Positions 1 through 35,090 of a stretch of 35,090 nucleotides of DNA are shown piece after piece. The DNA comes from an uncultured virus (IMG/VR IMGVR_UViG_3300046777_002950) (Duplodnaviria; Heunggongvirae; Uroviricota; Caudoviricetes), in IMG/VR virus record IMGVR_UViG_3300046777_002950; one strand, 5' to 3'. The notes below the pieces were generated by a model. That model was given only the letters and a program-made list of their open reading frames with translations. It was not told the origin of the DNA and did no database searches. A program made the position numbers and the translations under genes. Every line of letters starts with the position of its first letter. The stretch's first letter is position 1.

Positions 1-1
1 C

Positions 2-1606
2 ATTCCCAGTGGTGTGGTTTTGCAGTGGAAATGGCGAAAAGTTGTTACTGAAGATAAAAAAGGTAAGTCTACTGAGAAGTGGGAGAAAGTCCGCTTAGTC
101 GGTACAGGTGTCATCAGACCTAAAAGCGGTCATCCTTACTGTGAAATTAGACAACACTTAAATATTGAAAACCCTGATAAATATGGACAATGTGAATTTT
201 ATAGGAGTGACAATATTCCCGACTTTATGGCAGATGTTCCCACTAAATTTAAGGCAGGGGTAATTGATTCTTTAAAGAAATCATGGAAAGCTTACGTTAC
301 TCCAAAACACCCCGGTAGAAAGCCAAAATTCAAAGGGAGAAACGATAAAATCAAGTCGCTTGTTAATCTCAATGCTGGGGGTTTATCCAAAGAACTAAAA
401 CCGGAAAAAATACCCGGTTCAAATAATGGTTATGTCCAGTTCCCCAAGCTTGGTAAAATTAAAGTTAAAGGATTATTTGATAGATATGACTGGCAAGAAT
501 GGGGTCCTGCCAGAATAGTTAAAGAACCATCAGGTTACTATCTTCATGTATGCGTTGATATCCCCAATGACCCATTACCAAAATCTGATAAAGCAGTAGG
601 AATTGATCCGGGTTTACTATCAATTATTACCACAGATCAGGGTAAAGAAGTTGAGCCGCCTAAGCTATTTAGGAAACAACAAACTAAGCTAAGACGATTA
701 CAGCGTAAAGCATCTAGGCAGAAGAAAGGAGGATGTAATCAGAAGAAAACTTATCAAAAAATAGCCCTACACCATGAGAAGATCCGCCGCAGCCGCAACG
801 CATTTAACCATAAGTTATCTACTAAAGTTGTGCGTGAGTATTCTGGGATTGTGATGGAAGACTTAAAGATACAAAACCTGAACCGTAAGCCCAAAGCCAA
901 GAAACGTGAGGACGGCAATGGCTATGAACAAAACGGTGCAAAACGTAAAGCCGGGTTAAACAAAAGTTTTGCCGATTCAGCACTGGGTGATTTAATCAGT
1001 AAGATTGAAACAAAGTGCAAAGATACTGATAGAGAGTTTGTAAAAGTTGCGGCACACTACACTACGGTTGACTGTTCAAAATGTGGTGCTAAAATAAAGA
1101 AAGCATTGAGCCAAAGAACTCACCGCTGTACAGAATGTGGTCACACTGAAGGACGTGATTCTAATGCAGCCAAGAATATTTTACTCAAAGGCAAAAAGCA
1201 ATTACAAACAGTGTACCGCGCTTGGGCGTGGGAACATGGGGAAACCCGAAAGCCTGGCTCTGATTCCAATACGGAATGTCACCAGGAAGGTGTGCAAACA
1301 CCACCGGAGGATGGATATTCCTCCCAATTAAACCCCGAAAGGGGAACTCAGCGCGGAAGGGGGGATATAAAAACCTCTAAAACCGTGAAAACAACCCCAA
1401 AGGTAGACACCGTAAGCAACCTGAACCTTGACAATTTACCAAACACCCGCGCACCTTACCCAGTAAGCATTTCAGCTAATTCAGCGAAAACTCAAAAGCC
1501 TGGAACAAAGAAAAATAAGAGATCCGCGCAATCAGGGGATGAAACTTTTACACAGCTTACGATCTGGGATACGGCTGGTGAAACCGACCTTGGGGAACTG
1601 GGTTAA
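2..1606 (+). CDS. c2c8: Compact type V CRISPR effector (TnpB-derived, V-U2/C2c8-like), 5'-partial
   Basis: RuvC triad VGIDPG / VMEDL / RDSNAA intact; Zn finger CSKC..CTEC; adjacent CRISPR array. The frame is open to the window edge and the stop lies inside repeat 1. Subtype is from recollection of the family, not from a search. Confidence 0.75.
   Translation: MPSGVVLQWKWRKVVTEDKKGKSTEKWEKVRLVGTGVIRPKSGHPYCEIRQHLNIENPDKYGQCEFYRSDNIPDFMADVPTKFKAGVIDSLKKSWKAYVTPKHPGRKPKFKGRNDKIKSLVNLNAGGLSKELKPEKIPGSNNGYVQFPKLGKIKVKGLFDRYDWQEWGPARIVKEPSGYYLHVCVDIPNDPLPKSDKAVGIDPGLLSIITTDQGKEVEPPKLFRKQQTKLRRLQRKASRQKKGGCNQKKTYQKIALHHEKIRRSRNAFNHKLSTKVVREYSGIVMEDLKIQNLNRKPKAKKREDGNGYEQNGAKRKAGLNKSFADSALGDLISKIETKCKDTDREFVKVAAHYTTVDCSKCGAKIKKALSQRTHRCTECGHTEGRDSNAAKNILLKGKKQLQTVYRAWAWEHGETRKPGSDSNTECHQEGVQTPPEDGYSSQLNPERGTQRGRGDIKTSKTVKTTPKVDTVSNLNLDNLPNTRAPYPVSISANSAKTQKPGTKKNKRSAQSGDETFTQLTIWDTAGETDLGELG
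1380..1576 (+). promoter_or_regulatory. CRISPR leader-like region overlapping the low-complexity C-terminal tail of the effector ORF
   Basis: Immediately precedes repeat 1; contains GAACCTTGACAAT and CCGCGCA motifs resembling cyanobacterial leaders. Confidence 0.45.
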
Positions 1607-2117
1607 TTGCAAGTTATCCCGATATTAACGCAAGTATGGTGAAACCGACGGTGAAACCGACCTTGGGGAACTGGGTTAATTGCAAGCAGAAATAAGATCA
1701 CCAACTTCATTCAGAAAATTGAGGTGAAACCGACCTTGGGGAACTGGGTTAATTGCAAGCGAGATACAGTTTATTTCTAAGATGAGAGGTATCTAGGTGA
1801 AACCGACCTTGGGGAACTGGGTTAATTGCAAGATTCAGATTGTCAAAACCAATATCGGCAACATTGGTGAAACCGACCTTGGGGAACTGGGTTAATTGCA
1901 AGACTTACTTTGATAAAAAAGGCACTGAAAAAAGAGGGTGAAACCGACCTTGGGGAACTGGGTTAATTGCAAGAGATTCATCAGGCTTCTTTGCAGCATT
2001 TCTAGCTTGGTGAAACCGACCTTGGGGAACTGGGTTAATTGCAAGATTCAACAGAACATTTGCAACATCTTGACGTGCCAGGTGAAACCGACCTTGGGGA
2101 ACTGGGTTAATTGCAAG
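1577..2117 (+). CRISPR. CRISPR array, 8 identical 37-bp repeats, 7 spacers (33-36 bp)
   Basis: Repeat GGTGAAACCGACCTTGGGGAACTGGGTTAATTGCAAG starts at 1577, 1650, 1723, 1796, 1866, 1937, 2009 and 2081. The ATTGCAAG 3' end and leader position suggest + orientation. Confidence 0.97.
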
Positions 2118-2297
2118 GCAAGGCAAGTACTTCTTTTCATATGGTACAATTTACAACTTCAAAAGTTCAGTACAAAATATATTAAAATACGGACACTTTG
2201 CTATTGACAAGGATAAAACATTGTGTAATGATATAAATATAGAGGCAAGGGAGACAGCCCAAGCCTCTATTAACCAAGTAACTAGGAGTATTATATC

Positions 2298-2750
2298 ATG
2301 TCTCTTCAAAAGTATTTATCTAATCTCAATTCTGCTGATTCCCAATGGGGAATCTGGGTCAATCCAAATAATATCAATGATTATAGAATTGGTCAGTTTC
2401 AATTTGAAAATGGTGGCATTTTGGATGGAAAGATTTGCATAGGATCTTTAGACCAGTTAAGCTTTGGCTATCAGTCTCAACTTGATGCTATCAAGCAGTA
2501 TCTAGAAGAAAATCAGCTTCTTACCTTTGAAGGTAAGAAGGTGAAAGTAAATCAAAAAGAAATTCTCCAAGCTTGGAGTGATGGAAATTTAGATCCTAAT
2601 TTTTCTTCATTCTTAGAAGAAAAATCTCAAGATATCATGGAAATGTGGGCTTCATACGAAGCCGAAGAATTTGTTAATAATAAAATTCCTGAAATTATTG
2701 AGCAAGCATTAGAGGATGCAGATCAGGAATCTCCATATTCATTTGTTTGA
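2298..2750 (+). CDS. Hypothetical phage protein
   Basis: 150 aa ORF, AGGAG RBS upstream, hairpin downstream. Confidence 0.75.
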   Translation: MSLQKYLSNLNSADSQWGIWVNPNNINDYRIGQFQFENGGILDGKICIGSLDQLSFGYQSQLDAIKQYLEENQLLTFEGKKVKVNQKEILQAWSDGNLDPNFSSFLEEKSQDIMEMWASYEAEEFVNNKIPEIIEQALEDADQESPYSFV

Positions 2751-2757
2751 TAATAAC

Positions 2758-2778
2758 AAGGGGTGTTGCCCACCCCTT
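2758..2778 (+). terminator. GC-rich hairpin, possible terminator
   Basis: AAGGGGTG-ttgcc-CACCCCTT. Confidence 0.5.
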
Positions 2779-2799
2779 TGCTAAATCAAAAAAACCAAA

Positions 2800-3171
2800 A
2801 TGCAGCAAAAAATATTAATTGGCAATAAGTATTGCTCGCTGACGGTACAGAAACTAATGAAAGGTACTAAAAAATGCGAGTGCATTTGTGATTGCGGAAA
2901 AACAATAATTGTTTGGAAAACTGCCTTAGGGAAGCAGCGCTCATGTGGGTGCATGGGGAAAGGAACTACCGGAATAAGTAACCCGAAAAGAACGGAAATG
3001 AATCTTGCAAAGGTTCAAGTAAAGCTTGAACTTTTGCCAAACGAATTTTCTGTGGAAGTAATTGCTTCCATTTTGTATAAAGGCAATAAAACAAAAGCAG
3101 CCCAATGGGCTGCATGGAATTATCACGCAGGGCATATTCAAAAGGTCGCAAGAGGAATTTACAAAAAGTGA
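2800..3171 (+). CDS. Cys-rich phage DNA-binding protein (CxCDCG...SCGC domain as in phage HNH/AP2 proteins) with wHTH-like C-terminus
   Basis: CECICDCG...RSCGC; ends GHIQKVARGIYKK. Confidence 0.6.
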   Translation: MQQKILIGNKYCSLTVQKLMKGTKKCECICDCGKTIIVWKTALGKQRSCGCMGKGTTGISNPKRTEMNLAKVQVKLELLPNEFSVEVIASILYKGNKTKAAQWAAWNYHAGHIQKVARGIYKK

Positions 3172-3419
3172 GTAGAAAACAGGAGAGCATCACGCTCTCC
3201 ATCTCAATGGAAGACAAAGCCAAGCTAGAGAATAAAGCTTTAGAGTTTGGCTGCCTGTGGGGTGAAGACCCCAACATTTCCAAATTCATGAAACTAATAG
3301 CTAATGATGAGTTATTAGTTTCTAGGCCAGACAAACCCGCAACTCAAAAGCGGGCATCAATCAAAGATGCTATTAATAGCATCCAATCAGCACTAACAAT
3401 TTTATTGGAGTTAATTTAA
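3168..3419 (+). CDS. RHH-type regulator resembling the N-terminus of cyanobacterial CRISPR-associated WYL proteins, with no WYL domain
   Basis: GTG start overlapping the upstream stop (GTGA); MSRKQESITLSIS..DKAKLE..ALEFG..WG..PNISK. Confidence 0.7.
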   Translation: MSRKQESITLSISMEDKAKLENKALEFGCLWGEDPNISKFMKLIANDELLVSRPDKPATQKRASIKDAINSIQSALTILLELI

Positions 3420-3453
3420 TGCAAGTGTATCCAGTAAAGTAGCTTATTTCCAT

Positions 3454-3487
3454 TACCCACTAACACGCTTTAGTGGGTATTTTTTTA
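3454..3487 (+). terminator. Intrinsic terminator (hairpin family copy 1)
   Basis: TACCCACTAA-cacgct-TTAGTGGGTA followed by a T-run; related copies at 9844 and 12191. Confidence 0.7.
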
Positions 3488-3704
3488 TTTATGCAATAAG
3501 TACGCTTTAAAATTGCTTTATAAATTCTGAAACAAAGTCTATTTGCTTTTTGTGCAATAGTGTTTAAGCGCGGCGGCGGGCATAACCTGATCCTATGAGA
3601 GATTTATCTGCTTGAGAGAAATATTTGTCTTTAAACCAAAGATAGCAGATATCTGTTGTGTTAGTTCTTTTCTTAAAGAAGCTTTTTTATTTCCGTTTAA
3701 GCTA

Positions 3705-3743
3705 AAGATTGTTAATTAAGATTGTTAATTAAGATTGTTCAAT
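3705..3743 (+). repeat. Three tandem AT-rich 13-mers
   Basis: AAGATTGTTAATT x2 plus AAGATTGTTCAAT. Confidence 0.85.
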
Positions 3744-3838
3744 AATATAGATGAAACCTTAAATTCAACGACTCCAATGTTATTTTTAACGAATCGTGCG
3801 TTTTTTCTACTGTCTCCAGCGTTATTTTTAACGGATCG
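3737..3838 (-). repeat. Non-coding diverged copy of the rep iteron block (about 3 units of 21 bp plus tail)
   Basis: Reverse complement CGATCCGTTAAAAATAACGCTGGAGAC matches 34967-34993 at 24/27. The tail GAATTTAAGGTTTCATCTATATT resembles GAATTTAAAGGATGATCTATATT near 35060. Confidence 0.8.
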
Positions 3839-3867
3839 AGAATATAAGGCTTTCAAAACTTTCTTTG

Positions 3868-4635
3868 CTAAAATAAGGACAACTGAACTGGGCTGATTGC
3901 AGGTAGAATCATGGGAGAAGCAGGAATTACAGGAATTGGTGTTATTTCCGCCACGAAGACACTTGATTGTATTTGAGCGATGTAATTTATCAACTCTATT
4001 AATCTAGTGCCTCTAATGGCTTTTATTCCTCCTTCAAGTTCCCAAAATCTATCGTCAAAAACTTTCATCAGTTTGTCGCTTCTATAATTGCCTGAATCAA
4101 TCTCAGTTTTACTAAATCCCAATCCCATTAATTCTTCATATATCTGCAAATACTTTTTAAATCTGCTATCAACATAAACTGTGTCCAACTCAAATTGAAC
4201 TGGAAAAAGCGTACGACTACGCGCTTCTAATGCCCATGGGATAATGTGTTTTTGTCCTGATTCTGCTATGGCAATAGTAAACGGTGGTTCAGGAGGATTT
4301 AATAAGTATTCCCTGATTTCTACCCGTGTTAATAAGTTTTTGACCACACCGAAAGTATCTTTACCCTCAGTATGAGTACCTTCAATTATTGGTGCTATTA
4401 AAGTGTCACCTTGGTACACCCTGGACAAAGACCGTCCCCACAGTTTTGACCACTTATTTTTACCTTCATTCCAATACCATAACTGCTTTTGATTACCAGA
4501 AATTGTGGAATAGCAGCGATCGCACAGCAGCTTAGAATCTGGACACTTAGCTGATGAATGCATAGTGAAAGTATTAGATAATTCCAATGGATTTGATGCT
4601 GGTTTAGCACAAAGATAGCAAAGCGATCGCTGCAT
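3868..4635 (-). CDS. csf1: Type IV CRISPR large subunit Csf1 (Cas8-like)
   Basis: CYLC...NTFT...CDRC Zn motif; PPEPPF..AIAESGQKH..W; operon context. Confidence 0.85.
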   Translation of the reverse strand: MQRSLCYLCAKPASNPLELSNTFTMHSSAKCPDSKLLCDRCYSTISGNQKQLWYWNEGKNKWSKLWGRSLSRVYQGDTLIAPIIEGTHTEGKDTFGVVKNLLTRVEIREYLLNPPEPPFTIAIAESGQKHIIPWALEARSRTLFPVQFELDTVYVDSRFKKYLQIYEELMGLGFSKTEIDSGNYRSDKLMKVFDDRFWELEGGIKAIRGTRLIELINYIAQIQSSVFVAEITPIPVIPASPMILPAISPVQLSLF

Positions 4636-4638
4636 ATA

Positions 4639-5331
4639 TTAAACTCCTAAAATATTGTATTTTTCTCTGACAACTGAAACAGGCAAATCTAAATCATGCC
4701 ACCATTCCCAATCATCAACCAAAACAGCAGAATTTACACCTATGTTCCAATACTTCATAAGTTCATGAGACTTAATATCCTTGAATAAGTCGGATACAAA
4801 TATCTCTAACTGTTCAATTAAAAGTATAGGAAACTCTGTTTTTTGGATCATGCCGCTTTCGTAGGCTATTACAGCTAATTCACCCTTTTGAGATATGTCA
4901 ACATCTAATAAAATATGGTGCAAATCGTGAACTATGATGTAATTTGCAGGGAACAAAGAAGCGTCTGTGCTTGGTGTTTCCACTTGCTGTGTTAAATAGT
5001 ATTTTTTTAGTGCAGCACTCAAGCTACCCAGTACAGGACTTTTTAAATTTTTGTACAATAAATCAATTGCCTCTTTATTGGGATTTAACCCTGATCGCAA
5101 ATATGATTTAATACCATATTCTTTTTCATTTTCTGGCATACATGGTAATACTGAAGGCGCAGATTGAGAGCGTAAAGTACAAGTGGGACGCACATATTCA
5201 AATCTGATTCTACTAAATATTTCCCATCGCTTTAAAGGCGAAAATACTTCATCAGTTGATAAATCAATATTGATATTACCGGATGCTAACTGAGTAAAAG
5301 CTGCTTTATTTGTTAAGAATTGTTCAATCAT
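4639..5331 (-). CDS. Coq4-family-like zinc-binding protein inside the type IV-B operon
   Basis: HDLHH-x11-E matches the Coq4 HDxxH-x11-E motif; upstream LGSLSAALKKY resembles Coq4 GTLGxxY. Confidence 0.6.
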   Translation of the reverse strand: MIEQFLTNKAAFTQLASGNINIDLSTDEVFSPLKRWEIFSRIRFEYVRPTCTLRSQSAPSVLPCMPENEKEYGIKSYLRSGLNPNKEAIDLLYKNLKSPVLGSLSAALKKYYLTQQVETPSTDASLFPANYIIVHDLHHILLDVDISQKGELAVIAYESGMIQKTEFPILLIEQLEIFVSDLFKDIKSHELMKYWNIGVNSAVLVDDWEWWHDLDLPVSVVREKYNILGV

Positions 5332-6040
5332 AAATACCTTCGGATTGTAGTAGTGTAAACAATGGGAAATTATATCTTTTAATCAATTCCATTTTACCAT
5401 CAGACAACTGTTTATTTTTGTTAGCTGAAAACCAATATTTAGCGTGTGCATTTGTTCTACCATGCTCTCTATCTTTATAGTCATAGCTATTAAGATAGGG
5501 TAAATCATTAATAACTATATATGCCCAAACATCACGCCAATTCCACCACCCTAAAGGACATACTCTATAATGTCCAGCATATTTTCCAGTTTGATACTGA
5601 TGAATTAACCCATTATTCATCAGCGATCGCTTACGGTTTCTACTTTCTTCTGCTCGTAATCCTACAAATGCTAAAGTATACTCACCTTCAAGTATTTGAT
5701 TACATCTATCTTGAACCGTATCTGGTGTGTCCGCCCATTCCGGCAACCCTGTCAATTCTTTGTAATTTGTTGGGAATTTTTGCAAATAATTATTAATCAC
5801 TTCAGTGTAATTATCTACAACATCTTGTTCCGGTGATCCGTAATTTACTGCTATGATATTTGGTTGTATTTTTTGACATAAATGTAACATCACTAAACTG
5901 TCTTTACCCCAGCTAATAGCTACATAAGCAGGAGCAATTTTTAACGCTTCTTTAATGACTGCTTTGGCTTGTTCTACTTTTTTCTTGAATTTTGGCAAAG
6001 CTGCCCAGCCTTCAAACATTAATTTCTCATCAAGTTCCAT
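5324..6040 (-). CDS. cysH: Type IV-B associated CysH-like (PAPS reductase family, PP-loop) protein
   Basis: ISWGKDS, GLRAEESRNR, PLGWWNWRDVWAYI. Confidence 0.88.
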   Translation of the reverse strand: MELDEKLMFEGWAALPKFKKKVEQAKAVIKEALKIAPAYVAISWGKDSLVMLHLCQKIQPNIIAVNYGSPEQDVVDNYTEVINNYLQKFPTNYKELTGLPEWADTPDTVQDRCNQILEGEYTLAFVGLRAEESRNRKRSLMNNGLIHQYQTGKYAGHYRVCPLGWWNWRDVWAYIVINDLPYLNSYDYKDREHGRTNAHAKYWFSANKNKQLSDGKMELIKRYNFPLFTLLQSEGIYD

Positions 6041-6719
6041 AAATCACATTATCCTTTGGCATATAGCAAAGTTCTTTATTAGCTGCCAGCCAAGCCGGGC
6101 TTTTCCATCCCCAGATCAATTGAGGATTATCTATTTTTTGTGATATTAACCTCACAGGCATAGGACGCATTAGCTTATCATCTCGCCATAAATGATAATC
6201 GTCATAAGCTATTTCTACTTGCCATTGCTTAATCTCACCATTGCCATAACTTCGTTTTTTCTGAATATGGGTGACGGATGATAATAAAGCGTTAATCCCG
6301 TCTTTGTCTCCTACCGCAAACCAACTAATACTATTCGTTAAACGAGTGTATAAAGGCAAATCATAAGACTTTTCCACGCCTTCACCTGTCAAGAATTTAG
6401 CTTTTCTTTTCCCCCAATTCAAACTATTTTCATGATTATCCCATCTTTTCCGGTATCTATCAGTATTTTCACTTTTGACCACGTAACAAGGTGAACTTAC
6501 ACAGAAATATTTATCATTCATTATTGTATTCTGTTTAAGCGGTAATTTATCTACTAAAAAATCCTGAACTTCTGCAAGTTGTTGAATCGTAGGATTGGAT
6601 GATAATAGATTATTTTCTTCTAATAATCTATAGGTAAGAAGCCCCTCTAAGGAAGGACTCCAATTGTCATAGACACCAATCGGTGTAGACAAATATGCAG
6701 TGACTTTTAAATTATTCAC
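6030..6719 (-). CDS. csf3: Type IV CRISPR Csf3 (Cas5 group RAMP)
   Basis: LKVTAYLSTP, WFAVGD, KKRSYGNGEIKQW, LMRPMP. Confidence 0.85.
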   Translation of the reverse strand: MNNLKVTAYLSTPIGVYDNWSPSLEGLLTYRLLEENNLLSSNPTIQQLAEVQDFLVDKLPLKQNTIMNDKYFCVSSPCYVVKSENTDRYRKRWDNHENSLNWGKRKAKFLTGEGVEKSYDLPLYTRLTNSISWFAVGDKDGINALLSSVTHIQKKRSYGNGEIKQWQVEIAYDDYHLWRDDKLMRPMPVRLISQKIDNPQLIWGWKSPAWLAANKELCYMPKDNVIYGT

Positions 6720-7845
6720 CTAATAACTTCCTTAATTCTTTGGATGTTTTTGCTTCACTTAAAAACTGCTGATACTGATTGATATATTCCCGATATTTTT
6801 GATGGGAATTAAGAAATCTGTCCCCCATGACTCCATCCTTCAAAGAACACAATAAACCGTGTTCATGGTCAGATTGAAACCAGAAATCAAGATGAACCCT
6901 GCCATTACCACGATTGCTTTTACCACCAATATAAGGTGATTCTGAGAACTTGAGCAAAGTATCAAATATCCATCCCTCCTCTACTTGAGTACAGTTCAAA
7001 TCCCATCGGGAATAAAGTTTAGCACCGGGCATAATTAATCTATCAGCAGCAATCATCTGGTCTGATTTAGTTTTCTCTTTAGTTTTACCATCACCTGTTA
7101 ATTGTGCTTGTACTTCTGATGGTAGAAATTTGAGTAAGTTAGGATCTAAAGTACTATCTCTGCGGGTTGTCTGATCAATTGTTAAGTATTCAGTCCATGT
7201 CTTCATTACTTTTTTAACCAATGGCAAACATTCTGATTTTACTTGATTCCAATTGGTTAAGTCTTCCGATTTTGTGGCCACAAAAGGGTCGGAAGAAAGT
7301 CTGTTTTTAGCTTTAATTAATGTTGAAATAGTCGGTTGTATTTCCGGTGGTAAAATCGCTGGGACTTGATTGTAAACGTATTCTGCTGACTCATAGCAGA
7401 CTAAATAACCACTGCCAATATTAATTCTACCAGCCACCATTTGAGATTCTTTAGTCCCAAAAACTCCTGTAGGTTTAGCGGTTCCTAGTACTGACAACCA
7501 AGGCATAAAGACCCGGATCTTTTTATCCAGTTCCATATCTGAAGCCGTCCCCCCATCAATTCGCCCGCCAGCAAACATTGTGTGGTGAGTATCTGGATTT
7601 ACTTTAATTCCTAATTCTGTGAGTGCTGTTGACACTCCTACCCGGCGCAAAATACCATTTCTAATTGCATTACCAGAATAGACAAAAACACTTCTGGGAT
7701 TACCTTCAAAATCCAATAGCTTAGTAGTTTTCAGGTTACTAACATTGCCAGATACTTCGCCTATGTGGCTCAATGGTGTCTGTAGTGTAATTAAGCAATG
7801 TAAAGTCAATCTTTCCCTGTCAAAAATATTATAATTATCAAACAT
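6712..7845 (-). CDS. csf2: Type IV CRISPR Csf2 (Cas7 group RAMP)
   Basis: TPLSHI, SGNAIRNGILRR, MFAGG, PWLSVLG, G-rich loop IGGKSNRGNGRV. Confidence 0.9.
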   Translation of the reverse strand: MFDNYNIFDRERLTLHCLITLQTPLSHIGEVSGNVSNLKTTKLLDFEGNPRSVFVYSGNAIRNGILRRVGVSTALTELGIKVNPDTHHTMFAGGRIDGGTASDMELDKKIRVFMPWLSVLGTAKPTGVFGTKESQMVAGRINIGSGYLVCYESAEYVYNQVPAILPPEIQPTISTLIKAKNRLSSDPFVATKSEDLTNWNQVKSECLPLVKKVMKTWTEYLTIDQTTRRDSTLDPNLLKFLPSEVQAQLTGDGKTKEKTKSDQMIAADRLIMPGAKLYSRWDLNCTQVEEGWIFDTLLKFSESPYIGGKSNRGNGRVHLDFWFQSDHEHGLLCSLKDGVMGDRFLNSHQKYREYINQYQQFLSEAKTSKELRKLLGE

Positions 7846-8356
7846 TTGTCACTTCTACCTCAATAAATTCCTCTGGTTCATCAAGTCCCAAGCTTCTGTC
7901 TTCTTCAAAACGTAGCCGACAAATTACTTGGATAATTCCTGTTTTTGTTCTTAATAATTCCAGTACATCCCACTCACTAAATCCGTGGGGTTCAATGTCA
8001 GCAAGCAAGTCAAGCCAACCCATAAAAATCAAGCTTTGATCTATTGGTAGTTCCTTAATTTCAGTTGCGTCTTCATTGATTCTCAGTATTCTCTGAGTTG
8101 GTTGAATGATTTTGGTTAGCTCTACAGGTCTTAATTGCGACATTAGCTTGTCACAAAGATTTTGTAAATAGTCTTCTAGATTCGTGGATATTTCTGCACA
8201 ATTCTTGATAGAAGATTCTAGGTACGTCCAGGTTTTAGTCCCCATGGCTGGACTACGCTTCCTGTCACGACACTTGAAAACCCAGTAGCTTAAACAAGCA
8301 GCCACACCATAACACTTGTCCCGTGTTTGTGGCATTCCATAATGATTTATTGTCAC
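7838..8356 (-). CDS. Putative type IV-B small subunit (Cas11-like)
   Basis: 172 aa, apparently helical; first gene of the operon, overlapping csf2 by 8 bp. Confidence 0.6.
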   Translation of the reverse strand: MTINHYGMPQTRDKCYGVAACLSYWVFKCRDRKRSPAMGTKTWTYLESSIKNCAEISTNLEDYLQNLCDKLMSQLRPVELTKIIQPTQRILRINEDATEIKELPIDQSLIFMGWLDLLADIEPHGFSEWDVLELLRTKTGIIQVICRLRFEEDRSLGLDEPEEFIEVEVTNV

Positions 8357-8525
8357 CTTACTTTCCCAAACTAAAGTAATTTAATACTAACTTAGTATAA
8401 CACATTAATGGCTAAATAAATTTAAATTTATAATGATTATTTAGCTGATTAAACAAAGCTAAATTCCACAACCACATAATCCTTAATTTCTTCGGTACTC
8501 ATGGCGTTTTGTGCTATATTGTTGA

Positions 8526-8605
8526 TTGCTGCTATCCCAAACTAGCGGCTAAGTACCTGGTAATAAAAATGTGGTTGCTGCATTGACCACATTTTTTGGT
8601 ACTTA
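8526..8605 (+). ncRNA. Candidate small RNA divergent from the type IV-B operon
   Basis: TGcTATATT extended -10 (8512-8520); hairpin GCTGCTA/TAGCGGC; long terminal stem AAAAATGTGGT/ACCACATTTTT. Confidence 0.35.
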
Positions 8606-8687
8606 TGAATAATAGCATGACTAATTAAAATTTATTTTTAATAATTTATAGACTATATTATTTTTATCAATTAATGAGAGAAAAACC

Positions 8688-8831
8688 ATGTGTGCATATG
8701 GCGAAGGCTATGATGATGGGTTCAACAACAAACCTTACAATAATCCCTACCCAGATGGAACAAGAGACAGTGAGCAGTACTTTTATGGCTACTGCATTGG
8801 AGAAGACATGAGTGAAGCTGCTTATGGCTGA
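8688..8831 (+). CDS. 47-aa Rmf/CrpP-fold-like small protein (not in the ORF track)
   Basis: MCAYGEGYDDGFNNKPYNNPYPDGTRDSEQYFYGYCIGEDMSEAAYG; GAGAG RBS. Confidence 0.55.
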   Translation: MCAYGEGYDDGFNNKPYNNPYPDGTRDSEQYFYGYCIGEDMSEAAYG

Positions 8832-8840
8832 TTAGCTACC

Positions 8841-8922
8841 TTGATATACTCACCTGTTTTCAGACAGGTGATGTGATTCTTGGCACTTCACTAAAACACG
8901 CCACAAGTGGTCTTGCTGTCCC
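8841..8922 (-). mobile_element. IS200/IS605-family right-end remnant (MITE-like)
   Basis: Minus strand reads AAGAATCAC..TCACCTGT-ctgaaa-ACAGGTGA-GTATATCAA: subterminal hairpin and TCAA end. Confidence 0.55.
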
Positions 8923-9044
8923 AATAAAAGTACATGATTATTATATCAATAAGTATAGTTATATTTGCGATTAAGTGTTATAATAATAAAATACCAGCAC
9001 CGTTAAGAATGGTATCAACATTCCCAACGGCGATATCACTGGTA
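8922..9044 (+). promoter_or_regulatory. Antirepressor cassette promoter plus structured 5' leader, copy 1
   Basis: About 80 bp near-identical to 11255-11331; TGtTATAAT at 8976-8984; nested stem 8992-9044. Confidence 0.75.
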
Positions 9045-9063
9045 ATCAACTTAAAAATAAGAA

Positions 9064-9837
9064 GTGACTATGAACAGTCTAACACAAATTGACGTAATTG
9101 ACAGAAATGGTGAACTGGTTGTTGATTCCCGACTCATTGCCAGGGAGCTAGGTATTGAGCATGAATCATTTGTTAGGACAATCAAGAAATACTGGACAGA
9201 GATTCAAGAGTTCGGACACCTCCGATTTGAAAACGGAACTGCAACAAACTCAGCCGGTGCAAAGAATACAACCGTTTTCTACTATTTGAATGAAGACCAA
9301 GCTACTTACGTAATGACTTTATCCAAAAACACCGATAAAGTTAGACAATGTAAGCGATCGCTGGTCAAGGCATTTAAAGATGCTAAAGCCGTCATAAAAA
9401 CCGTTATTCCCCAACAATCAGAGCGTATTCGTGAGCTAGAACTTCAGTTAGCAGTTGCCAAGGAAATCAACAAAGGCAAAGAATTAGACTCCTCTATGCT
9501 CACTATGCACGGCAAAGAAACAGTTTTAGCATTAAGAGGGATGTCAGATCAGATTGTCAGGTCTGAGGTTTTAGTTACTGAGATTGTGCAACCGGAAACG
9601 GGTAAAGTATCCAAAGTCCTGACCGCTGATCAACTCAAAGCAGAAATTAAAAAGCGTACTGGACAAAAGATACCCTCGCTTAAATGGGTAGCTGATAAAT
9701 TACGGAACATGAACCGTGATGATTTATTAATACCCGTTACAAGGCACTCTACTAGTGAGTATGTTGCACCTGATTCATTGGATGAAGTCATTGATTTAAT
9801 ATTTGGAGATACTAGGCAAAGATTAATTGGTGAATAA
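9064..9837 (+). CDS. Rha-family phage regulatory / antirepressor protein
   Basis: LVVDSRLIARELGIEH...YYLNEDQATYVMTLSKNT...K..LVKAF. Confidence 0.85.
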   Translation: MTMNSLTQIDVIDRNGELVVDSRLIARELGIEHESFVRTIKKYWTEIQEFGHLRFENGTATNSAGAKNTTVFYYLNEDQATYVMTLSKNTDKVRQCKRSLVKAFKDAKAVIKTVIPQQSERIRELELQLAVAKEINKGKELDSSMLTMHGKETVLALRGMSDQIVRSEVLVTEIVQPETGKVSKVLTADQLKAEIKKRTGQKIPSLKWVADKLRNMNRDDLLIPVTRHSTSEYVAPDSLDEVIDLIFGDTRQRLIGE

Positions 9838-9843
9838 TTCCCA

Positions 9844-9869
9844 TATCCACTAAAACGCTTTAGTGGGTA
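9844..9869. terminator. Hairpin family copy 2, between convergent genes
   Basis: TATCCACTAAA-acgc-TTTAGTGGGTA. Confidence 0.6.
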
Positions 9870-9872
9870 CTT

Positions 9873-11243
9873 TTAAAACAATGACAACTGCTGATAAGGT
9901 GGCTTAGTCTTTTCCTCAATCTCTACTTGTTCCTCTACAGTTAATCCTCTCTCAGTGATGGGAGTATTTAAGCGTTGATGAATAATGTCAACATATTCCC
10001 GTTCTTTTTCAATGCAGATATAGTTTCTACCGAGTTCTTTACAGGCTAGTGCTGTTGTACCACTACCGGCAAATGGGTCAAGGACTGTACCACCTTCAGG
10101 GGTAATTAACTGGATTAAATATTTCATCAAATACCTACTCTTGACTGTGGGATGGACGTTTTCTACCGTACCACCGCATGATCTGTCATTAGTTGATGCT
10201 TTGGCTGAGTAGTAGACGCTGCTGACTGTTTCCGGGTCAAATGGCAGTTGTTTAAAATATCGCGCTGCTGTTCCTGTACTGCCATGACAATAAGGAATAT
10301 CCTCTCTTTTGTTTAATCCCACAAAATATGAAATATCCCCTGTAGTTTTATATCCACTACCACTCGGACAAATCCCACTTTGTTCTCCAATGACTGATAC
10401 TGGACAATCAGGGCTATGATTATCACCTTTGCAGTCAGCACCACAGGATAAGATTAAGTTGGCAGGGTAACGACCTATATCTGGGTCATACAGTGTGTTA
10501 TCTAAAGATTCTTTACGCTCCTTCCTAAATACTACTTTATTAACTGTATGAGGATTTTTACTTTTGATATTATCACCTTTATCAATCCCAATCCTACACG
10601 CTTCAATATTCAAGCCACCGACACCGTGTTTTAATATATTTCTTGCAATACTTGACTCACTGATAGGTTTTTGAACCAACCACCAACCCTCAACCGCTGG
10701 TTTTAGTGCTGGGGTCTTCCATCCGTCCCACCGCTTGGCTTCGGGTGTTGCGGGTGCTGTTATTAACGAATAATCACCGAATCTGTTAATAGCGTTCCAG
10801 TTGTCATCAGTGAAGTTATTGCTACCACCTTTGGAATGTAGTCCACAGTGTGAACCAATACTTATGACTTCCCTCTCTTTTCCCACTAATTTGTCCAACA
10901 TTTTCCCAATATGCTGACCTTTCGGAAAACCAGAACCCTGGCAGTGGTGAATTATATCAATCAACCTAAACCCTGCTAACTCCAAAGCCATACCCGTCCA
11001 GTGAGACGTTCTAGGAATACTCCAAACTAAACCACAAGCCCCTGGTTTCATAACTCTTAAACATTCATTCATAACTTCAGAAAACCAGTTTATCCAGTCC
11101 AACATTCCGCCTTTATTGTTATCCCAATCTCTACCCATAAAGCTAATTCCTGCAGGCGGATCTGTTATTAAGCTTTCAAAATAATTGTCAGGAATATCTT
11201 TCAAAACTTCAAAACAATCACCATGAATTATCTGATTAATCAT
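9873..11243 (-). CDS. Orphan DNA methyltransferase (N4/N6, beta class)
   Basis: IHGDC, TDPPA, HPTVK, VLDPFAGSGTT. Confidence 0.92.
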   Translation of the reverse strand: MINQIIHGDCFEVLKDIPDNYFESLITDPPAGISFMGRDWDNNKGGMLDWINWFSEVMNECLRVMKPGACGLVWSIPRTSHWTGMALELAGFRLIDIIHHCQGSGFPKGQHIGKMLDKLVGKEREVISIGSHCGLHSKGGSNNFTDDNWNAINRFGDYSLITAPATPEAKRWDGWKTPALKPAVEGWWLVQKPISESSIARNILKHGVGGLNIEACRIGIDKGDNIKSKNPHTVNKVVFRKERKESLDNTLYDPDIGRYPANLILSCGADCKGDNHSPDCPVSVIGEQSGICPSGSGYKTTGDISYFVGLNKREDIPYCHGSTGTAARYFKQLPFDPETVSSVYYSAKASTNDRSCGGTVENVHPTVKSRYLMKYLIQLITPEGGTVLDPFAGSGTTALACKELGRNYICIEKEREYVDIIHQRLNTPITERGLTVEEQVEIEEKTKPPYQQLSLF

Positions 11244-11254
11244 GCCCTGGCTAT

Positions 11255-11373
11255 CAATAAAAGTACATAATAATTATATCAATAAGTGTAGTTATATTTG
11301 CGATTAAGTGTTATAATTAAAATACCAGCACTTCAAAAGGTGGATACAGCCACCCATGAAGTCTTATCGCTGG
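11255..11373 (+). promoter_or_regulatory. Antirepressor cassette promoter plus structured 5' leader, copy 2
   Basis: Direct repeat of 8922-9000 followed by a stem of the same shape but different sequence (11325-11373). Confidence 0.75.
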
Positions 11374-11397
11374 GGTCAACCTAACTAACAGGTCAAC

Positions 11398-12183
11398 ATG
11401 ACTAGTTTAACAGCTTTTAATTTTAATAACAATCAAGTCCGCGTTTTGATGATTGACGGCGAACCTTGGTTTGTAGCTAAAGATGTTGCAGAAATTTTTG
11501 ATTATGCCGATTTATCAAAAATGCTGAACCTCGTAGATACTGAAGACAAGGATGTGATTAATCCCAAAAAATTAGATTCCGCCATTTTGGCGGAATCCTT
11601 TAGCAGCAATACTTTCAAGGTTTCAATCATTAATGAGTCTGGATTGTACGCTTGTATCTTTGGAAGTCATAAACCACAAGCTAAAGAATTTAAACGGTGG
11701 GTAACATCACAAGTATTACCAGCGATCAGGAAGTCAGGCACTTATTCAACCTTGACCTCAATACCCCAAGTACAGGAGATAGGATCAGCTATAGATGTGG
11801 TATTCGCTTGTACAGCCATAGACTCACGTTTAATAGCAGGGGTCAAAGCTAATCAGATTGCCAAAAGCTATCCTGCGTTAGCATCTGCCATGGAAGAATC
11901 AAAAACTCTCTTAGGCATTCCTGTAGAGAAGGAACTGGTGCGCCCTGGTAAATTGGCAGAACTTTATGCTCAAAAAACAGGGCTGGAAATTTCCGCTAGA
12001 AAGATGAATTTACTCTTGATGGAAAAAGGGATGCAAACTAAAAATACCAGCGGTTCTAGCCCGTTGTGGTTGCCAACAGAAGAGGGTAAGGAATATTCTC
12101 AAATAGTTTTGGATACAGCCAAAGGACATAATAAAACCGTCCAGTCCCTACAGTGGTATCCATCTGTGGTTGACGTGATTTAA
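11398..12183 (+). CDS. BRO-N domain antirepressor protein
   Basis: VRVLMIDGEPWFVAKDVAEI...INESGLY...AKEFKRWVTSQVLPAIRKSG. Confidence 0.92.
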   Translation: MTSLTAFNFNNNQVRVLMIDGEPWFVAKDVAEIFDYADLSKMLNLVDTEDKDVINPKKLDSAILAESFSSNTFKVSIINESGLYACIFGSHKPQAKEFKRWVTSQVLPAIRKSGTYSTLTSIPQVQEIGSAIDVVFACTAIDSRLIAGVKANQIAKSYPALASAMEESKTLLGIPVEKELVRPGKLAELYAQKTGLEISARKMNLLLMEKGMQTKNTSGSSPLWLPTEEGKEYSQIVLDTAKGHNKTVQSLQWYPSVVDVI

Positions 12184-12222: not shown

Positions 12223-12261
12223 AAGCAATGAAACCCAACTAAGTATGTGCTAAAATCTAAA

Positions 12262-12331
12262 TAGACACAGTTTAGGGGTCGTCGTAGGACTGCCGCAACA
12301 TTACCGCTCACGCAGCGGTTTTGTTGTTTTT
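12262..12331 (+). ncRNA. Candidate small RNA
   Basis: TGcTAAAAT at 12248-12256; GC-rich body; terminator ACCGCT/AGCGGT with T-run; no ORF. Confidence 0.3.
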
Positions 12332-12520
12332 AATGATAATAAAAGCACCACCAGGAGATAAATATTTCTCTCAAAAAACTTTGGAATAAAACCTTAAATA
12401 ATTGTAAATATTTATGGTACAATAATTGTCATGTTTCCTTTATACTCGTAGGATTTCAAGATGATTTTATGGGTATTTTTTTACTTATAATTGAATAAAG
12501 ATTATAAGTAAAAGAACAAT

Positions 12521-13360
12521 ATGAAAAGCAGAAAACTACTACATGGATTAATATTCTGTTTGTTCGCCATTGAAACCACAATACACTTTAGTATTAATTC
12601 CATTCAAGCTAATGCACTAAGCAATAAAAAATCGCTAGTAGCTAATACTCAAATCTACAAAGAAGGGAGCGTGAAACAGCCCTCTCCCAACTACAACGTC
12701 CCACAGAAAAAAGAGGATTACCAAGAGTTTAACGAAGCCCTTGCATCATTGAATGTTATCAAAGCCTTGATCATTATTTCAGGATGCGTTTTTACAGCCA
12801 TTGTATCTTTAATGGGGGAAACCCTGCTCAAGACAATCATTAATCAGTTGAAAGATATCATGCTAGAAATTATGAACAACCAGAAATACTTTGAGAATAT
12901 TTCTGCTGAAGAAATACTGGCAATTACTCAATTAATGAAACGAACTAGAGCAGACATTAAAGCAACTAGGCTCTCTATGTTTAAGTTACAAGAAGACAGC
13001 CATACAGTGTTTCTAGAAGTCTCTTCAAACGGGAAATATTCTTTATCTGGCAGCCCGCCTGTAGCCCGACAATTTTTTGATTCTGCGGTTTTACCCATGC
13101 TCAATGATGGTGAAAAATATTCTTACTGTGGCGATCGCGGCGACATTTGTGCAACCTGGTTAGCAGCCCGTGGAACAGGACGTTATGCCATTCACTTGTT
13201 TTTTCATAAAGATGATTTTGCTGGTTTTGTACTAGCTGAATGGAGACGGCTGGTATTAGTTGATTCCATCTTTAAATTTAATCAAAATTCTAACTACTAT
13301 AAATCCAAATTGAAGACTTTAGCTGATATGATCAATGAAGCTATTAAGGACAAAAAGTAA
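12521..13360 (+). CDS. Membrane protein: signal-like N-terminus, TM helix, GAF-like C-terminal domain
   Basis: Hydrophobic segments; ADIKATRLSMFKL...FAGFVLAEW gives a GAF-like pattern. Confidence 0.55.
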   Translation: MKSRKLLHGLIFCLFAIETTIHFSINSIQANALSNKKSLVANTQIYKEGSVKQPSPNYNVPQKKEDYQEFNEALASLNVIKALIIISGCVFTAIVSLMGETLLKTIINQLKDIMLEIMNNQKYFENISAEEILAITQLMKRTRADIKATRLSMFKLQEDSHTVFLEVSSNGKYSLSGSPPVARQFFDSAVLPMLNDGEKYSYCGDRGDICATWLAARGTGRYAIHLFFHKDDFAGFVLAEWRRLVLVDSIFKFNQNSNYYKSKLKTLADMINEAIKDKK

Positions 13361-13375
13361 GTTAGGTGTAAGCAG

Positions 13376-14617
13376 ATGTTGATAAACCAAAATGGAATTA
13401 TAGACTTTATTAAAGTTCGTGGAGGAATAATTAACCTGCGCGAACTTTCTCACTTTAACCGCAAAGATATTGAAGCTTTACAGTTAGAAGGATACATCAA
13501 AGTTAGTCGAGGAAGTAGCGGTATTGAAGTCACTTTATTAGATAAATTCACCAAGAAATATGATGGAATAGCAGCAAAAGAAGAAGTACGAAAACACCAT
13601 CAAGTCATTGAAAATAAGCTAGTAGAAAAGAAAAAAAGCAAGAGGGACGCTAATGATTTCTCTCTGAAAAACAAGATATTTAGTGTTATTAAAAACGCTG
13701 ATTATCCAGTGACAGCCAGTGAGATTAAAGAGCAACTAATCCAGTGCAATCCTGATAGTATCTGCGCTTATTTGTCAGCACTGGTTAAAGCTAATATTAT
13801 AGTTTGCAGTGAAAATAGAAAAATGTTTAGGCACTACACCACGCCCGACCGAAAAGATTTACTAACAGGATTAAACAGAAAGCCCAAAAAACCTAAACCC
13901 GAACCAATTCCCGTTCCTGCCACCGCATCTGCTTTAAAAGAGAAATTAGCCGTAGCTGAAGACATAAATCTAAAACACAAGGTACTAGAAATTGTCGTTG
14001 ATTCTGAGTCACCAATGACATTACAACAAGTGCGATCGCTCTTACCGGAATCCACCAACATCAAAACCATATCTGCATACTTATCACTATTTGCCCGCAA
14101 AGGGGTCTTGTGCTGTAGTCGTGTTATCAAGAATAATATCAAATACTACACCACCCCAGATCGCTCTTACTTGTTTGGGGACTGGACCCCCCGACCCGGT
14201 TCTCGGAAGGTTGCCGAAAGAATTTTAAGTGTATTAGAAAATACTAGCATTGCTTTGGGGATTCGTGGTATATCAGCACAATCCCAGATACCACGTAAAT
14301 CAGCTTGGATTGTTATAAATAAGCTAAAGAACAAAGGATTGATTGAGTTAAAGCGTACCGGATACTCTTTACATATTGCTCTCAAGTCCAATTCTTCCGC
14401 CATGGAAAGCCTAGACAAAGTTTCTGGATACACGTTAAGAGACCAGATTATTGAATCCATTAAAAACAACAACCATCACGCTCAAAGCATTTTAAGCGAC
14501 TTAATTAATGATTACTCCCTTCCACATATTCACAGGGTGTTGCGACAAATGAAAGCCACAGGCGTTTTATATTCCTGCATTAAAGGACGACACACTCTTT
14601 ATTTTTTGAATAATTAA
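13376..14617 (+). CDS. Tandem winged-helix DNA-binding protein
   Basis: Basic; internal repeats ending (H/Y)YTTPDR; N-terminus paralogous to 15462-16289. Confidence 0.7.
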   Translation: MLINQNGIIDFIKVRGGIINLRELSHFNRKDIEALQLEGYIKVSRGSSGIEVTLLDKFTKKYDGIAAKEEVRKHHQVIENKLVEKKKSKRDANDFSLKNKIFSVIKNADYPVTASEIKEQLIQCNPDSICAYLSALVKANIIVCSENRKMFRHYTTPDRKDLLTGLNRKPKKPKPEPIPVPATASALKEKLAVAEDINLKHKVLEIVVDSESPMTLQQVRSLLPESTNIKTISAYLSLFARKGVLCCSRVIKNNIKYYTTPDRSYLFGDWTPRPGSRKVAERILSVLENTSIALGIRGISAQSQIPRKSAWIVINKLKNKGLIELKRTGYSLHIALKSNSSAMESLDKVSGYTLRDQIIESIKNNNHHAQSILSDLINDYSLPHIHRVLRQMKATGVLYSCIKGRHTLYFLNN

Positions 14618-34520: not shown

Positions 34521-35090
34521 ATGGGAAAATACTTGATAAAACATTATGGGCGATACATTTATCGCCATGAGGATTATCAAGCGATTTGTCAAGGTGATGA
34601 CTGCGCTGCACAAATTCTCAGTCTATTTGAGTTTTGGACTAGTTGCCGAATAGAAGAGATTCGGCGTGTACAAAGCTACAACGATCAGAACAAGAAAAAT
34701 ACTTCTCTTGTTCTGCAAGTACCAACGACGTGGTTGTATGAAACCACTGAAGATATAAGCATGGGCATATTAAATGCTTATGGCGACTCGTCCATAAGGA
34801 AGTCAATTAAAAAACTTCTTGACTGGGGGTTTCTTGATTCAAGAAGTTCCAAGAACGGTTTTGATAGAACCAAAGAATACAGATTTAACACTGATTTAAT
34901 TCAAACAGCATTAGATCAGTGGAACAATCAAAATGAAGTTGTAAAGGCCGAAAGTATTGATAAATCCGATCCGTTAGAAATAACGCAGGAGTCGTTAGAA
35001 ATAACGCAGGAGTCGTTAGAAATAACGCAGGAGTCGTTAGAAATAACGCAGGAGTCAGTGAATTTAAAGGATGATCTATATTCTTTAAAC
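34521..35090 (+). CDS. Phage replication initiator (wHTH Rep), 3'-partial (not in the ORF track)
   Basis: GGAGG RBS; MGKYLIKH...WLYETTEDI...IRKSIKKLLDWGFL...FDRTKEYRFN; open to the window end; internal iterons. Confidence 0.8.
   Translation, partial: MGKYLIKHYGRYIYRHEDYQAICQGDDCAAQILSLFEFWTSCRIEEIRRVQSYNDQNKKNTSLVLQVPTTWLYETTEDISMGILNAYGDSSIRKSIKKLLDWGFLDSRSSKNGFDRTKEYRFNTDLIQTALDQWNNQNEVVKAESIDKSDPLEITQESLEITQESLEITQESLEITQESVNLKDDLYSLN
34972..35055 (+). repeat. Four perfect 21-bp iterons inside rep (probable origin)
   Basis: CGTTAGAAATAACGCAGGAGT x4, each with a palindromic core CGTTA-gaaa-TAACG. Confidence 0.9.

Follow-up and report, generated by a model that had tools for sequence, protein, structure and literature searches.

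A type V-U2 CRISPR unit and a type IV-B operon side by side in a phage of Nostocaceae: the array probably belongs to C2c8

A type V-U2 CRISPR locus has been described in Aphanizomenon phage vB_AphaS-CL131 (PMC6293099), as a first-pass annotation of the sequence studied here had correctly noted. A preprint on another phage-borne effector, Cas12p (10.1101/2025.01.20.633832), reports that it uses a trans-activating RNA (tracrRNA) together with a CRISPR RNA (crRNA), recognizes a GTN protospacer-adjacent motif and cleaves double-stranded DNA; the AAAC end of its repeat pairs with the tracrRNA and its host is given as undetermined. That preprint makes no mention of type IV, Csf or cyanobacteria. The function of type IV-B systems was still called uncharacterised in a 2024 review. 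V-U2 in a cyanophage, IV-B in viruses, and both kinds of system are already published; our literature search found no publication joining type IV-B with V-U2, nor, among the papers listed for either term, one joining Cas12p with type IV-B. Here we analyse a window of 35,090 nt, the whole stretch of DNA given by IMG/VR record IMGVR_UViG_3300046777_002950 (uncultured virus, Caudoviricetes), whose first 8.4 kb carry the effector gene c2c8, a CRISPR array and a six-gene type IV-B operon. We consider it probable that these genes form a CRISPR island of variable content with two self-contained modules, the array being that of C2c8 and the IV-B operon being separate and array-less.

The c2c8 open reading frame (ORF; 2..1606, plus strand) codes for a type V-U2 Cas12-like effector and has its 5' end truncated by the window edge. 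Its product scores 417 bits with NCBIfam model NF038192 (cut-off 350) and 1.8e-144 with PADLOC Cas12u2; the full-length protein of relative L012 has 587 residues and reaches 487.6 bits with the same NCBIfam model. Pfam recognizes OrfB_IS605 and Cas12f1-like_TNB in the window protein. The RuvC motifs GIDPG, MEDL and RDSNAA and the CxxC..CxxC zinc ribbon are intact and align with their counterparts in Cas12p, which is also the closest solved relative (PDB 9JFS, E 8.9e-30). The array (1577..2117, plus strand) consists of eight identical 37-nt repeats (GGTGAAACCGACCTTGGGGAACTGGGTTAATTGCAAG) and seven spacers of 33-36 nt, and its first repeat overlaps the 3' end of the c2c8 ORF. The match to the curated model, the TnpB-like RuvC core with D-E-D and zinc ribbon, and the adjoining array without adaptation genes identify the unit as type V-U2, in agreement with the type V effector and array first read on this strand. 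Spacer 1 ends in a 12-nt duplicate of the repeat 5' end, leaving a true spacer of only 24 nt (1638-1661). In an anti-repeat scan the best plus-strand duplexes lay within the range of shuffled sequence, and no tracrRNA candidate is claimed from it. A duplex of -36.7 kcal/mol would form between the repeat and the antisense of a repeat-like stretch (2343-2372) inside the ORF 2298-2750; this ORF is found also in the nearest record, G001, which has no such array.

The position and the sequence of the array follow c2c8 in the relatives. Among the 13 c2c8 loci whose downstream sequence is available, 12 have an array that begins no more than 30 nt before and no more than 10 nt past the end of the c2c8 ORF; the exception is L013/L029, where it is deleted. 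Repeats of the window family also come directly after c2c8 in L024, L025, L027, L028 and L034. The repeat varies with the c2c8 clade (window, L030, L035 and CL131 types), the spacer-proximal ...GCAAG or GTAAG end being kept. Arrays of Cas12p have another repeat family, ending GTTGAAAC. Repeats of the Cas12p type resemble certain host arrays in Nostocaceae genomes; the C2c8 repeat was not found in 301 such genomes. Nostocaceae contig G273:C14 carries c2c8 (88% amino acid identity) and a 14-repeat array, the other window genes being absent from its 34 kb.

Six arrays located behind C2c8 proteins that are 94-98% identical contain 7, 20, 5, 4, 18 and 27 spacers and have none in common. Relative to the L030 array, that of L031 has gained two c2c8-proximal spacers and shows an internal loss. 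Judged from its spacers, which turn over completely between near-identical phages and are acquired on the c2c8-proximal side, the C2c8 array is live. Matches to Cas1, Cas2 and Cas6 families, of which the first-pass annotation had none in view, were not found in the window ORFs. These scans used Pfam, NCBIfam and PADLOC for the 13 ORFs of 1-12183, Pfam for the other 36 ORFs of at least 80 residues, and PHROGs for the same 36 and five of the first 13, so ORFs below 80 residues outside 1-12 kb are not covered. Cas1 (PF01867) and Cas6 (PF01881) are also missing from all five related phage records searched, three of which are 94-100% complete. Spacer turnover in near-complete relatives without Cas1 implies that adaptation must come in trans, and this complete turnover without a phage cas1 raises the question of who performs it.

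Targets of the spacers were sought in several collections, following the proposal to compare them with viral and plasmid databases. The window array gave no match in 50,697 phage records searched in distant mode, nor did the double array of L012 in the same records. Against 72,556 plasmids the window array returned only matches of E 0.5, in Methanosarcina and Streptomyces, and against five related phage records, taken whole, only array-to-array likeness. With only two candidates scored in each genome, the window spacers reached only E 0.002-0.01 per genome in the 301 Nostocaceae genomes, and a 22-nt seed of spacer 7 had 0 matches in IMG/VR. Among 210 unique spacers from all arrays of the compared loci, one matched non-array DNA within those loci: a spacer of the L046 Cas12p array (5287-5471) matches the cas12p gene, with 100% identity in L048 and 97% in its own contig, which could be inter-phage targeting or self-regulation. 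L048, a complete 95-kb phage, has in addition an orphan array of seven repeats (L048:5797-6246) with a Cas12p-like repeat variant, located 0.9 kb past csf1, inverted and with no adjoining effector.

The second module is a minus-strand operon of six genes (3868-8356), cas11-csf2-csf3-cysH-like-Coq4-like-csf1, convergent to the c2c8 unit, and the initial reading of a type IV-B operon on that strand within 8.4 kb stands. Neighbouring ORFs overlap by 8-11 nt or are separated by 3-nt gaps. The small subunit gene cas11 (7838..8356) has a weak match to PADLOC typeIV_Cas11 (6.5e-06); csf2 (6712..7845) codes for the Cas7 backbone (typeIV_Cas7, 2.5e-37) and its profile has Csf2 of PDB 7JHY as best, distant structural match (E 0.0033); csf3 (6030..6719) codes for the Cas5 of type IV (typeIV_Cas5, 3.5e-42); and csf1 (3868..4635) codes for the large subunit (typeIV_Cas8, 7.8e-22), with an N-terminal Cys cluster and a Pro-rich linker. 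The NCBIfam type IV equivalogs match csf1 (TIGR03114, 34 bits), csf2 and csf3 (TIGR03116, 42.7 bits), all below cut-off, and leave cas11 unmatched. The cysH-like gene (5324..6040), of the PAPS-reductase/PP-loop family and the characteristic accessory gene of IV-B systems, scores 54.7 bits with PF01507 (cut-off 22.5) and has SWGKDS at the PP-loop position. DinG/RecD helicase, Cas6 and nuclease families were absent from the operon ORFs in Pfam, NCBIfam and PADLOC, which confirms at the level of sequence an operon devoid of all three. The presence of csf1, cas11, csf2 and csf3 in one operon with a cysH-like gene, and without helicase, Cas6 or an array of its own, corresponds to type IV-B.

The remaining gene of the operon (4639..5331, minus strand, 230 residues) is a candidate Coq4-like gene. 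Its Pfam match to PF05019 (E 0.018) is below cut-off, an HDLHH...E metal-site pattern can be read from the sequence, and Coq4 is the identity of each of its top three ESM Atlas clusters (scores 0.87-0.88, 193-197 of 256 features); the AlphaFold (AF2) model has a predicted local distance difference test (pLDDT) value of 48, too poor to use. The Coq4-like gene is accompanied by a cysH allele that shares only 28-30% identity with the one in most relatives, and the window, L010 and L048 are the only records with this pair. On a plasmid of Gloeobacter morelensis, an IV-B operon of 50% identity has cas6 between csf2 and csf3 (L182:13207-13998) and a cupin after the cysH-like gene, with no array within 9.3 kb.

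Association of the two modules was followed in 16 IV-B records, 15 viral contigs and the window, with 62-99% Csf2 identity. Linkage is recurrent, as expected in the first-pass annotation: a V-U2-like effector lies within ~10 kb downstream of csf1 in 11 of the 16. This neighbour is C2c8 in the window and L013; it is Cas12p in L010, L011, L015-L017 and on the contigs of L019, L023 and L048; L012 has both, with two arrays face to face. In L011 a C2c8-type array follows Cas12p at the contig end. The second effector of these relatives is the type V-P 'Cas12 hacker' itself, matching PDB 9JFS with 1387 bits across 613 residues, and stands together with an array of its own at a hot spot downstream of csf1 in L010:16339-18210 (G001), L012, L015-L017 and L043-L048. 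IV-B operons 96-99% identical stand beside a C2c8-type array (window), a Cas12p-type array (L010) or both (L012). The remaining five IV-B records have no C2c8 or Cas12p anywhere in the record. No array, C2c8 or Cas12p was found anywhere in the IV-B records G002 (45 kb) and G004 (74 kb); G002 shares with the window 94-96% identity in cas11 and csf2 and 86-87% in csf3 and csf1.

The converse situation is also found. All five C2c8 phage records searched whole lack csf2, including G009 (100% complete) and G007 (94%), and a search of 50,697 phage records that include CL131 returned no csf2. In two complete or near-complete C2c8 phages csf2 is absent and csf1 is reduced to a frameshifted stub. Such csf1 stubs, covering approximately residues 189-255 or 216-255, are present in L025, L027 and L028 and are frameshifted in the last two; the deletion of IV-B in these phages has therefore spared C2c8 and its array. 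L013 shows the reverse loss, the array and small ORFs being deleted so that c2c8 lies 95 nt from csf1. Among 401 genomes of the order, C2c8 is above cut-off in 18, this csf2 is in 2 (short contigs) and no genome has both.

The first-pass annotation had the two effector types converging on one array. Their neighbourhood does recur, but the array evidence points to C2c8 as owner and away from IV-B. The array abuts c2c8, its repeat follows the c2c8 clade, and the pair outlives deletion of IV-B; IV-B for its part persists with a Cas12p array of another repeat family or without any array in the record. We hold as distinctly improbable that the Csf complex loads crRNAs of the neighbouring type V array or arrays for nuclease-free targeting of competitors. 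Such sharing would suit a complex without its own Cas6 or array that neighbours a type V unit in 11 of 16 records and has left csf1 stubs in three more. Pinilla-Redondo et al. (PMC7038947) proposed that IV-B accepts pre-processed crRNAs, neighbouring arrays not being found in the material they report, and an IV-B system with a mini-array is described in an archaeal virus (PMC10848311); the cas6 of the Gloeobacter relative goes in the same direction. However, the modules are lost independently, and sharing would demand that IV-B take repeats of two families whose spacer-proximal ends differ (..GCAAG and ..GAAAC). The two transcription units are moreover convergent with a terminator between them, and the only solved IV-B complex, as described in PMC7937560, assembled on heterogeneous non-CRISPR RNA.

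Relatives of the island occur in four lake metatranscriptome runs, which were analysed as Logan contigs, from which strand, ends and level cannot be derived. An L013-like contig, with depths of 244-591 in three runs, joins window 1020-1407, one repeat (2079-2117) and csf1 (3865-4614); contigs of csf3, csf2, cas11 and the c2c8 5' part reach 2-36 in the same runs. In the fourth, one repeat and csf1 are joined on a shorter contig, with depth 30. The uneven depth argues for an RNA origin rather than carried-over DNA. Window parts left uncovered (e.g., 4801-6000) correspond to the divergent cysH allele of the variant present, or to gaps, and not to silence. In L013 itself (13303-13399) the array is down to a single repeat and the c2c8 3' end lies beside the csf1 stop, the form that has the greatest depth in three of the four runs. 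Contigs of the c2c8 3' end, repeat and csf1 having 7- to >100-fold the depth of their neighbours could be taken in favour of guide sharing, their strand not being derivable. The same uneven depth in RNA libraries speaks against a different proposal, that one or both modules are decaying, non-functional passengers. Frequent deletions (the csf1 stubs and the L013 variant without array), the stop codon that severs the CL131 c2c8 from its tail and the failure to find a spacer target are what decay would leave. Yet c2c8 and all six csf ORFs of the window are intact, as they are in relatives down to 62-71% identity, catalytic motifs are preserved and spacers turn over completely between near-identical phages, and we regard decay as extremely improbable.

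Both modules carry candidate sliding-clamp motifs. The C-terminal pentapeptide of Csf1 is QLSLF (nt 3871-3885). Of 16 Csf1 ORFs, 10 have it as their very last residues, one has QLSLFG and one QLLLF; three shorter ORFs lack it, and one further ORF is cut by the contig end. The preceding Pro-rich linker diverges between relatives. QL[S/D]LF is reported as the consensus clamp-binding motif (PMC12309361). The C-terminus of C2c8 is a low-complexity tail with TQLT[I/L]W (nt 1550-1567), invariant in 8 of 8 aligned C2c8 proteins and located at the very C-terminus in the L030 and L035 types. Chromosomal homologues L146, L147 and L150 have QLTIWD or QLTLWD, and L148 and L154 the looser QL[S/G]LNLW. Synonymous codon differences across homologues indicate selection on the tail peptide. 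A conserved motif and drifting flanks at a terminus, as expected of a beta-clamp ligand, are seen in these tails. A putative C-terminal beta-clamp motif was likewise proposed for cyanobacterial IS200/IS605 OrfB (TnpB) by Gomez et al. 2014 (PMC3971601). The OrfB proteins listed there end in QLSLFD.., QLNLFD.. or QLSIFDLLK*, compared with QLTIWD.. or QLTLW* in C2c8, which has W at the last motif position where OrfB has F; in both cases the clamp motif is a predicted one. A complex prediction of the G014 DnaN dimer with C2c8 tail residues 435-534 scored 0.01, neither for nor against binding, and the only literature match for type IV Csf1 with the sliding clamp concerned IV-A1. A DNA methyltransferase of the window (9873..11243, minus strand; family scans) also ends in QQLSLF. 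One may imagine that Csf1, C2c8 and the methyltransferase all dock on the host clamp and that the IV-B filament borrows type V or host crRNAs to act at the replication forks of competitors. We judge this scenario very improbable; if true, clamp-docked guide borrowing would be the first defined guide source and site of action for type IV-B.

We assign the window to a tailed Nostocaceae phage of the Dolichospermum/Aphanizomenon type. Its mobile-element setting, proposed from the start, is borne out by the genes for Rha, Bro-N, DNA methyltransferase, thymidylate kinase (Tmk), dCTP deaminase and an ASCH protein (Pfam, PHROGs) and by the nearest record, the IMG/VR viral contig G001 (= L010), with 99% identity over 3858-9000, 91% over 2128-3419 and no match to 1-2127. 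Relatives G009 and G013 are 95-100 kb long, have terminal repeats and are rated complete. A host within Nostocaceae is supported by a csf2 of 74% identity on a short contig of a Dolichospermum metagenome-assembled genome and by Nostocaceae spacers against the window: one in G254:C29 matches 1260-1298 (37/39) inside c2c8 and one in G055:C19 matches 4241-4278 (35/38) inside csf1. Both sit within long class-1-type arrays, and host CRISPR therefore targets the phage's own CRISPR genes.

This host pressure would give sense to an anti-CRISPR sponge, in which a Csf filament soaks up host I-D/III-B crRNAs independently of the phage array. CL131-like phages are indeed reported to be targeted by host I-D/III-B arrays (PMC6293099), the operon has no array, Cas6 or nuclease, and the role has been proposed in print (PMC7038947; 10.1101/2023.08.02.551345). 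But a passive role requires neither a conserved Csf1 clamp tail, as predicted here, nor CysH-like and Coq4-like enzymes, Pinilla-Redondo et al. for their part considered an anti-CRISPR of this complexity unlikely (PMC7038947), and IV-B is deleted in several successful relatives. We find a sponge unlikely.

For two modules that work each on its own account we propose the following scheme. Since c2c8 runs straight into its array, guides would probably come from the same plus-strand transcript and consist of the 3' part of the repeat, with its conserved ...TTG(G)CAAG, followed by the spacer. They would probably pair with a tracr-like scaffold, as in Cas12p, the nearest characterised relative, from which we also infer that the intact RuvC site of C2c8 would then cut matching DNA. 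The live array would depend on adaptation enzymes supplied in trans. The array-less IV-B operon would neither own nor need the neighbouring array; its Csf ribonucleoprotein may be tethered to the DNA sliding clamp by the QLSLF tail of Csf1, and the CysH-like and Coq4-like enzymes may act at this clamp-tethered complex.

Several points weigh against this scheme. The neighbourhood is persistent, with a type V unit within ~10 kb in 11 of 16 IV-B records and three C2c8 phages with csf1 stubs, so a coupling of the modules that is beneficial but dispensable may exist. All compared records belong to one phage lineage and their counts are not independent events, and completeness is only 22-82% for the five IV-B records that lack a type V gene. 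Because its operon contains cas6, the Gloeobacter relative indicates that some members of this IV-B clade probably handle repeat-derived RNA. None of the seven window spacers gave a credible target in the phage, plasmid, related-phage and Nostocaceae searches, so the function assigned to the C2c8 unit derives from homology only. Clamp binding by Csf1 and C2c8 is a prediction from the motif alone.

The natural variants make guide borrowing by IV-B directly testable by expression. They form an allelic series at one locus, at 94-99% identity, with IV-B next to C2c8 and its array, next to Cas12p and its array, or next to both; further states are IV-B and C2c8 with the array deleted, IV-B alone, and C2c8 and its array with a csf1 stub. 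With its predicted clamp-binding tail, Csf1 in turn provides a definite binding assay, which this system has lacked.

Three small plus-strand ORFs lie between the array and csf1. ORF 2298..2750 codes for 150 residues with an acidic C-terminus, has a 90% identical copy in L010 and gave no family match with Pfam (E<=10), NCBIfam, PADLOC or PHROGs. ORF 2800..3171 (123 residues, Cys-rich N-terminus) has weak likeness to HNH-endonuclease-associated phage proteins (phrog_374, E 8.2e-08) and no Pfam match. ORF 3168..3419, coding for a small protein of 83 residues from GTG at 3168, has homologues in L010, L012, L013, L025, L027 and L028 and, among relatives, is the ORF that most regularly neighbours the IV-B operon or csf1 stub. 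Its AlphaFold model is all-helical (pLDDT 71.7) and has no PDB fold match at E<=0.001, so that a ribbon-helix-helix reading was dropped. A WYL-related regulator, placed between the modules in the first-pass annotation, was not recovered: none of the three ORFs matches a WYL model in Pfam (E<=10), NCBIfam, PADLOC or PHROGs, and the modelled third one is helical where a WYL protein would have an SH3-like beta fold. A terminator-like hairpin followed by a T-run (3454..3479, plus strand; sequence scan) closes the unit of c2c8, array and three small ORFs, and is repeated at several sites of G001.

Elsewhere in the window, Rfam (gathering threshold) and ARAGORN gave no match over its full length, and a promoter scan was at chance level (31 found versus 29.8 expected). 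Segment 8689-8831 has a 47-codon ORF followed by a hairpin. Stretches 8866-8922 and ~12254-12332 are 80-88% identical to multi-copy sequences of many Nostocaceae genomes. The peak depth of RNA-library contigs, 454-1996, is at 8701-9000; neither 8689-8922 nor 12254-12332 has an Rfam or tRNA match. At the window end (34972-35056) a DnaD-like ORF contains four exact copies of a 21-nt tandem unit (LEITQES x4).

Compared with known systems, the C2c8 unit is closest in layout to that of CL131 (PMC6293099), a phage of the same host family whose C2c8-family effector (78% amino acid identity over the aligned part, 79.6% nucleotide identity) also directly precedes an array, other cas genes being absent. 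CL131 differs in having no csf2, hence no IV-B, and in a repeat of different sequence except for its ...TTGGCAAG end; its annotated c2c8 ORF stops before the tail, the QLTLW codons being in a separate short frame. The IV-B operon resembles that of Mycobacterium sp. JS623 (PDB 7JHY; PMC7937560), which is described as having cas11-csf2-csf3-csf1 with a cysH-like gene and no array, Cas6, helicase or nuclease. The window sequence is very distant from it (profile E 0.0033), lies on a phage instead of a plasmid, has the extra Coq4-like gene in the operon and may differ also in the QLSLF tail of its Csf1. Fuxivirus, according to PMC10848311, likewise encodes a IV-B system beside CRISPR repeats and has a cas gene matched by a host spacer, as csf1 is here; it has a two-repeat mini-array without other effector, whereas the present array has its own type V effector. 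Cas12p shares with C2c8 the character of a phage-borne miniature TnpB-like Cas12 with its own array, and fills the same island beside the same IV-B operon. It is absent from the window, is only 27% identical to the window C2c8, has repeats ending in GTTGAAAC instead of TTGCAAG, lacks a QLxLW tail and is the only one of the two for which thioredoxin activation has been shown. The comparison assigns the 'Cas12 hacker' of the preprint to Nostocaceae phages, where it neighbours type IV-B.

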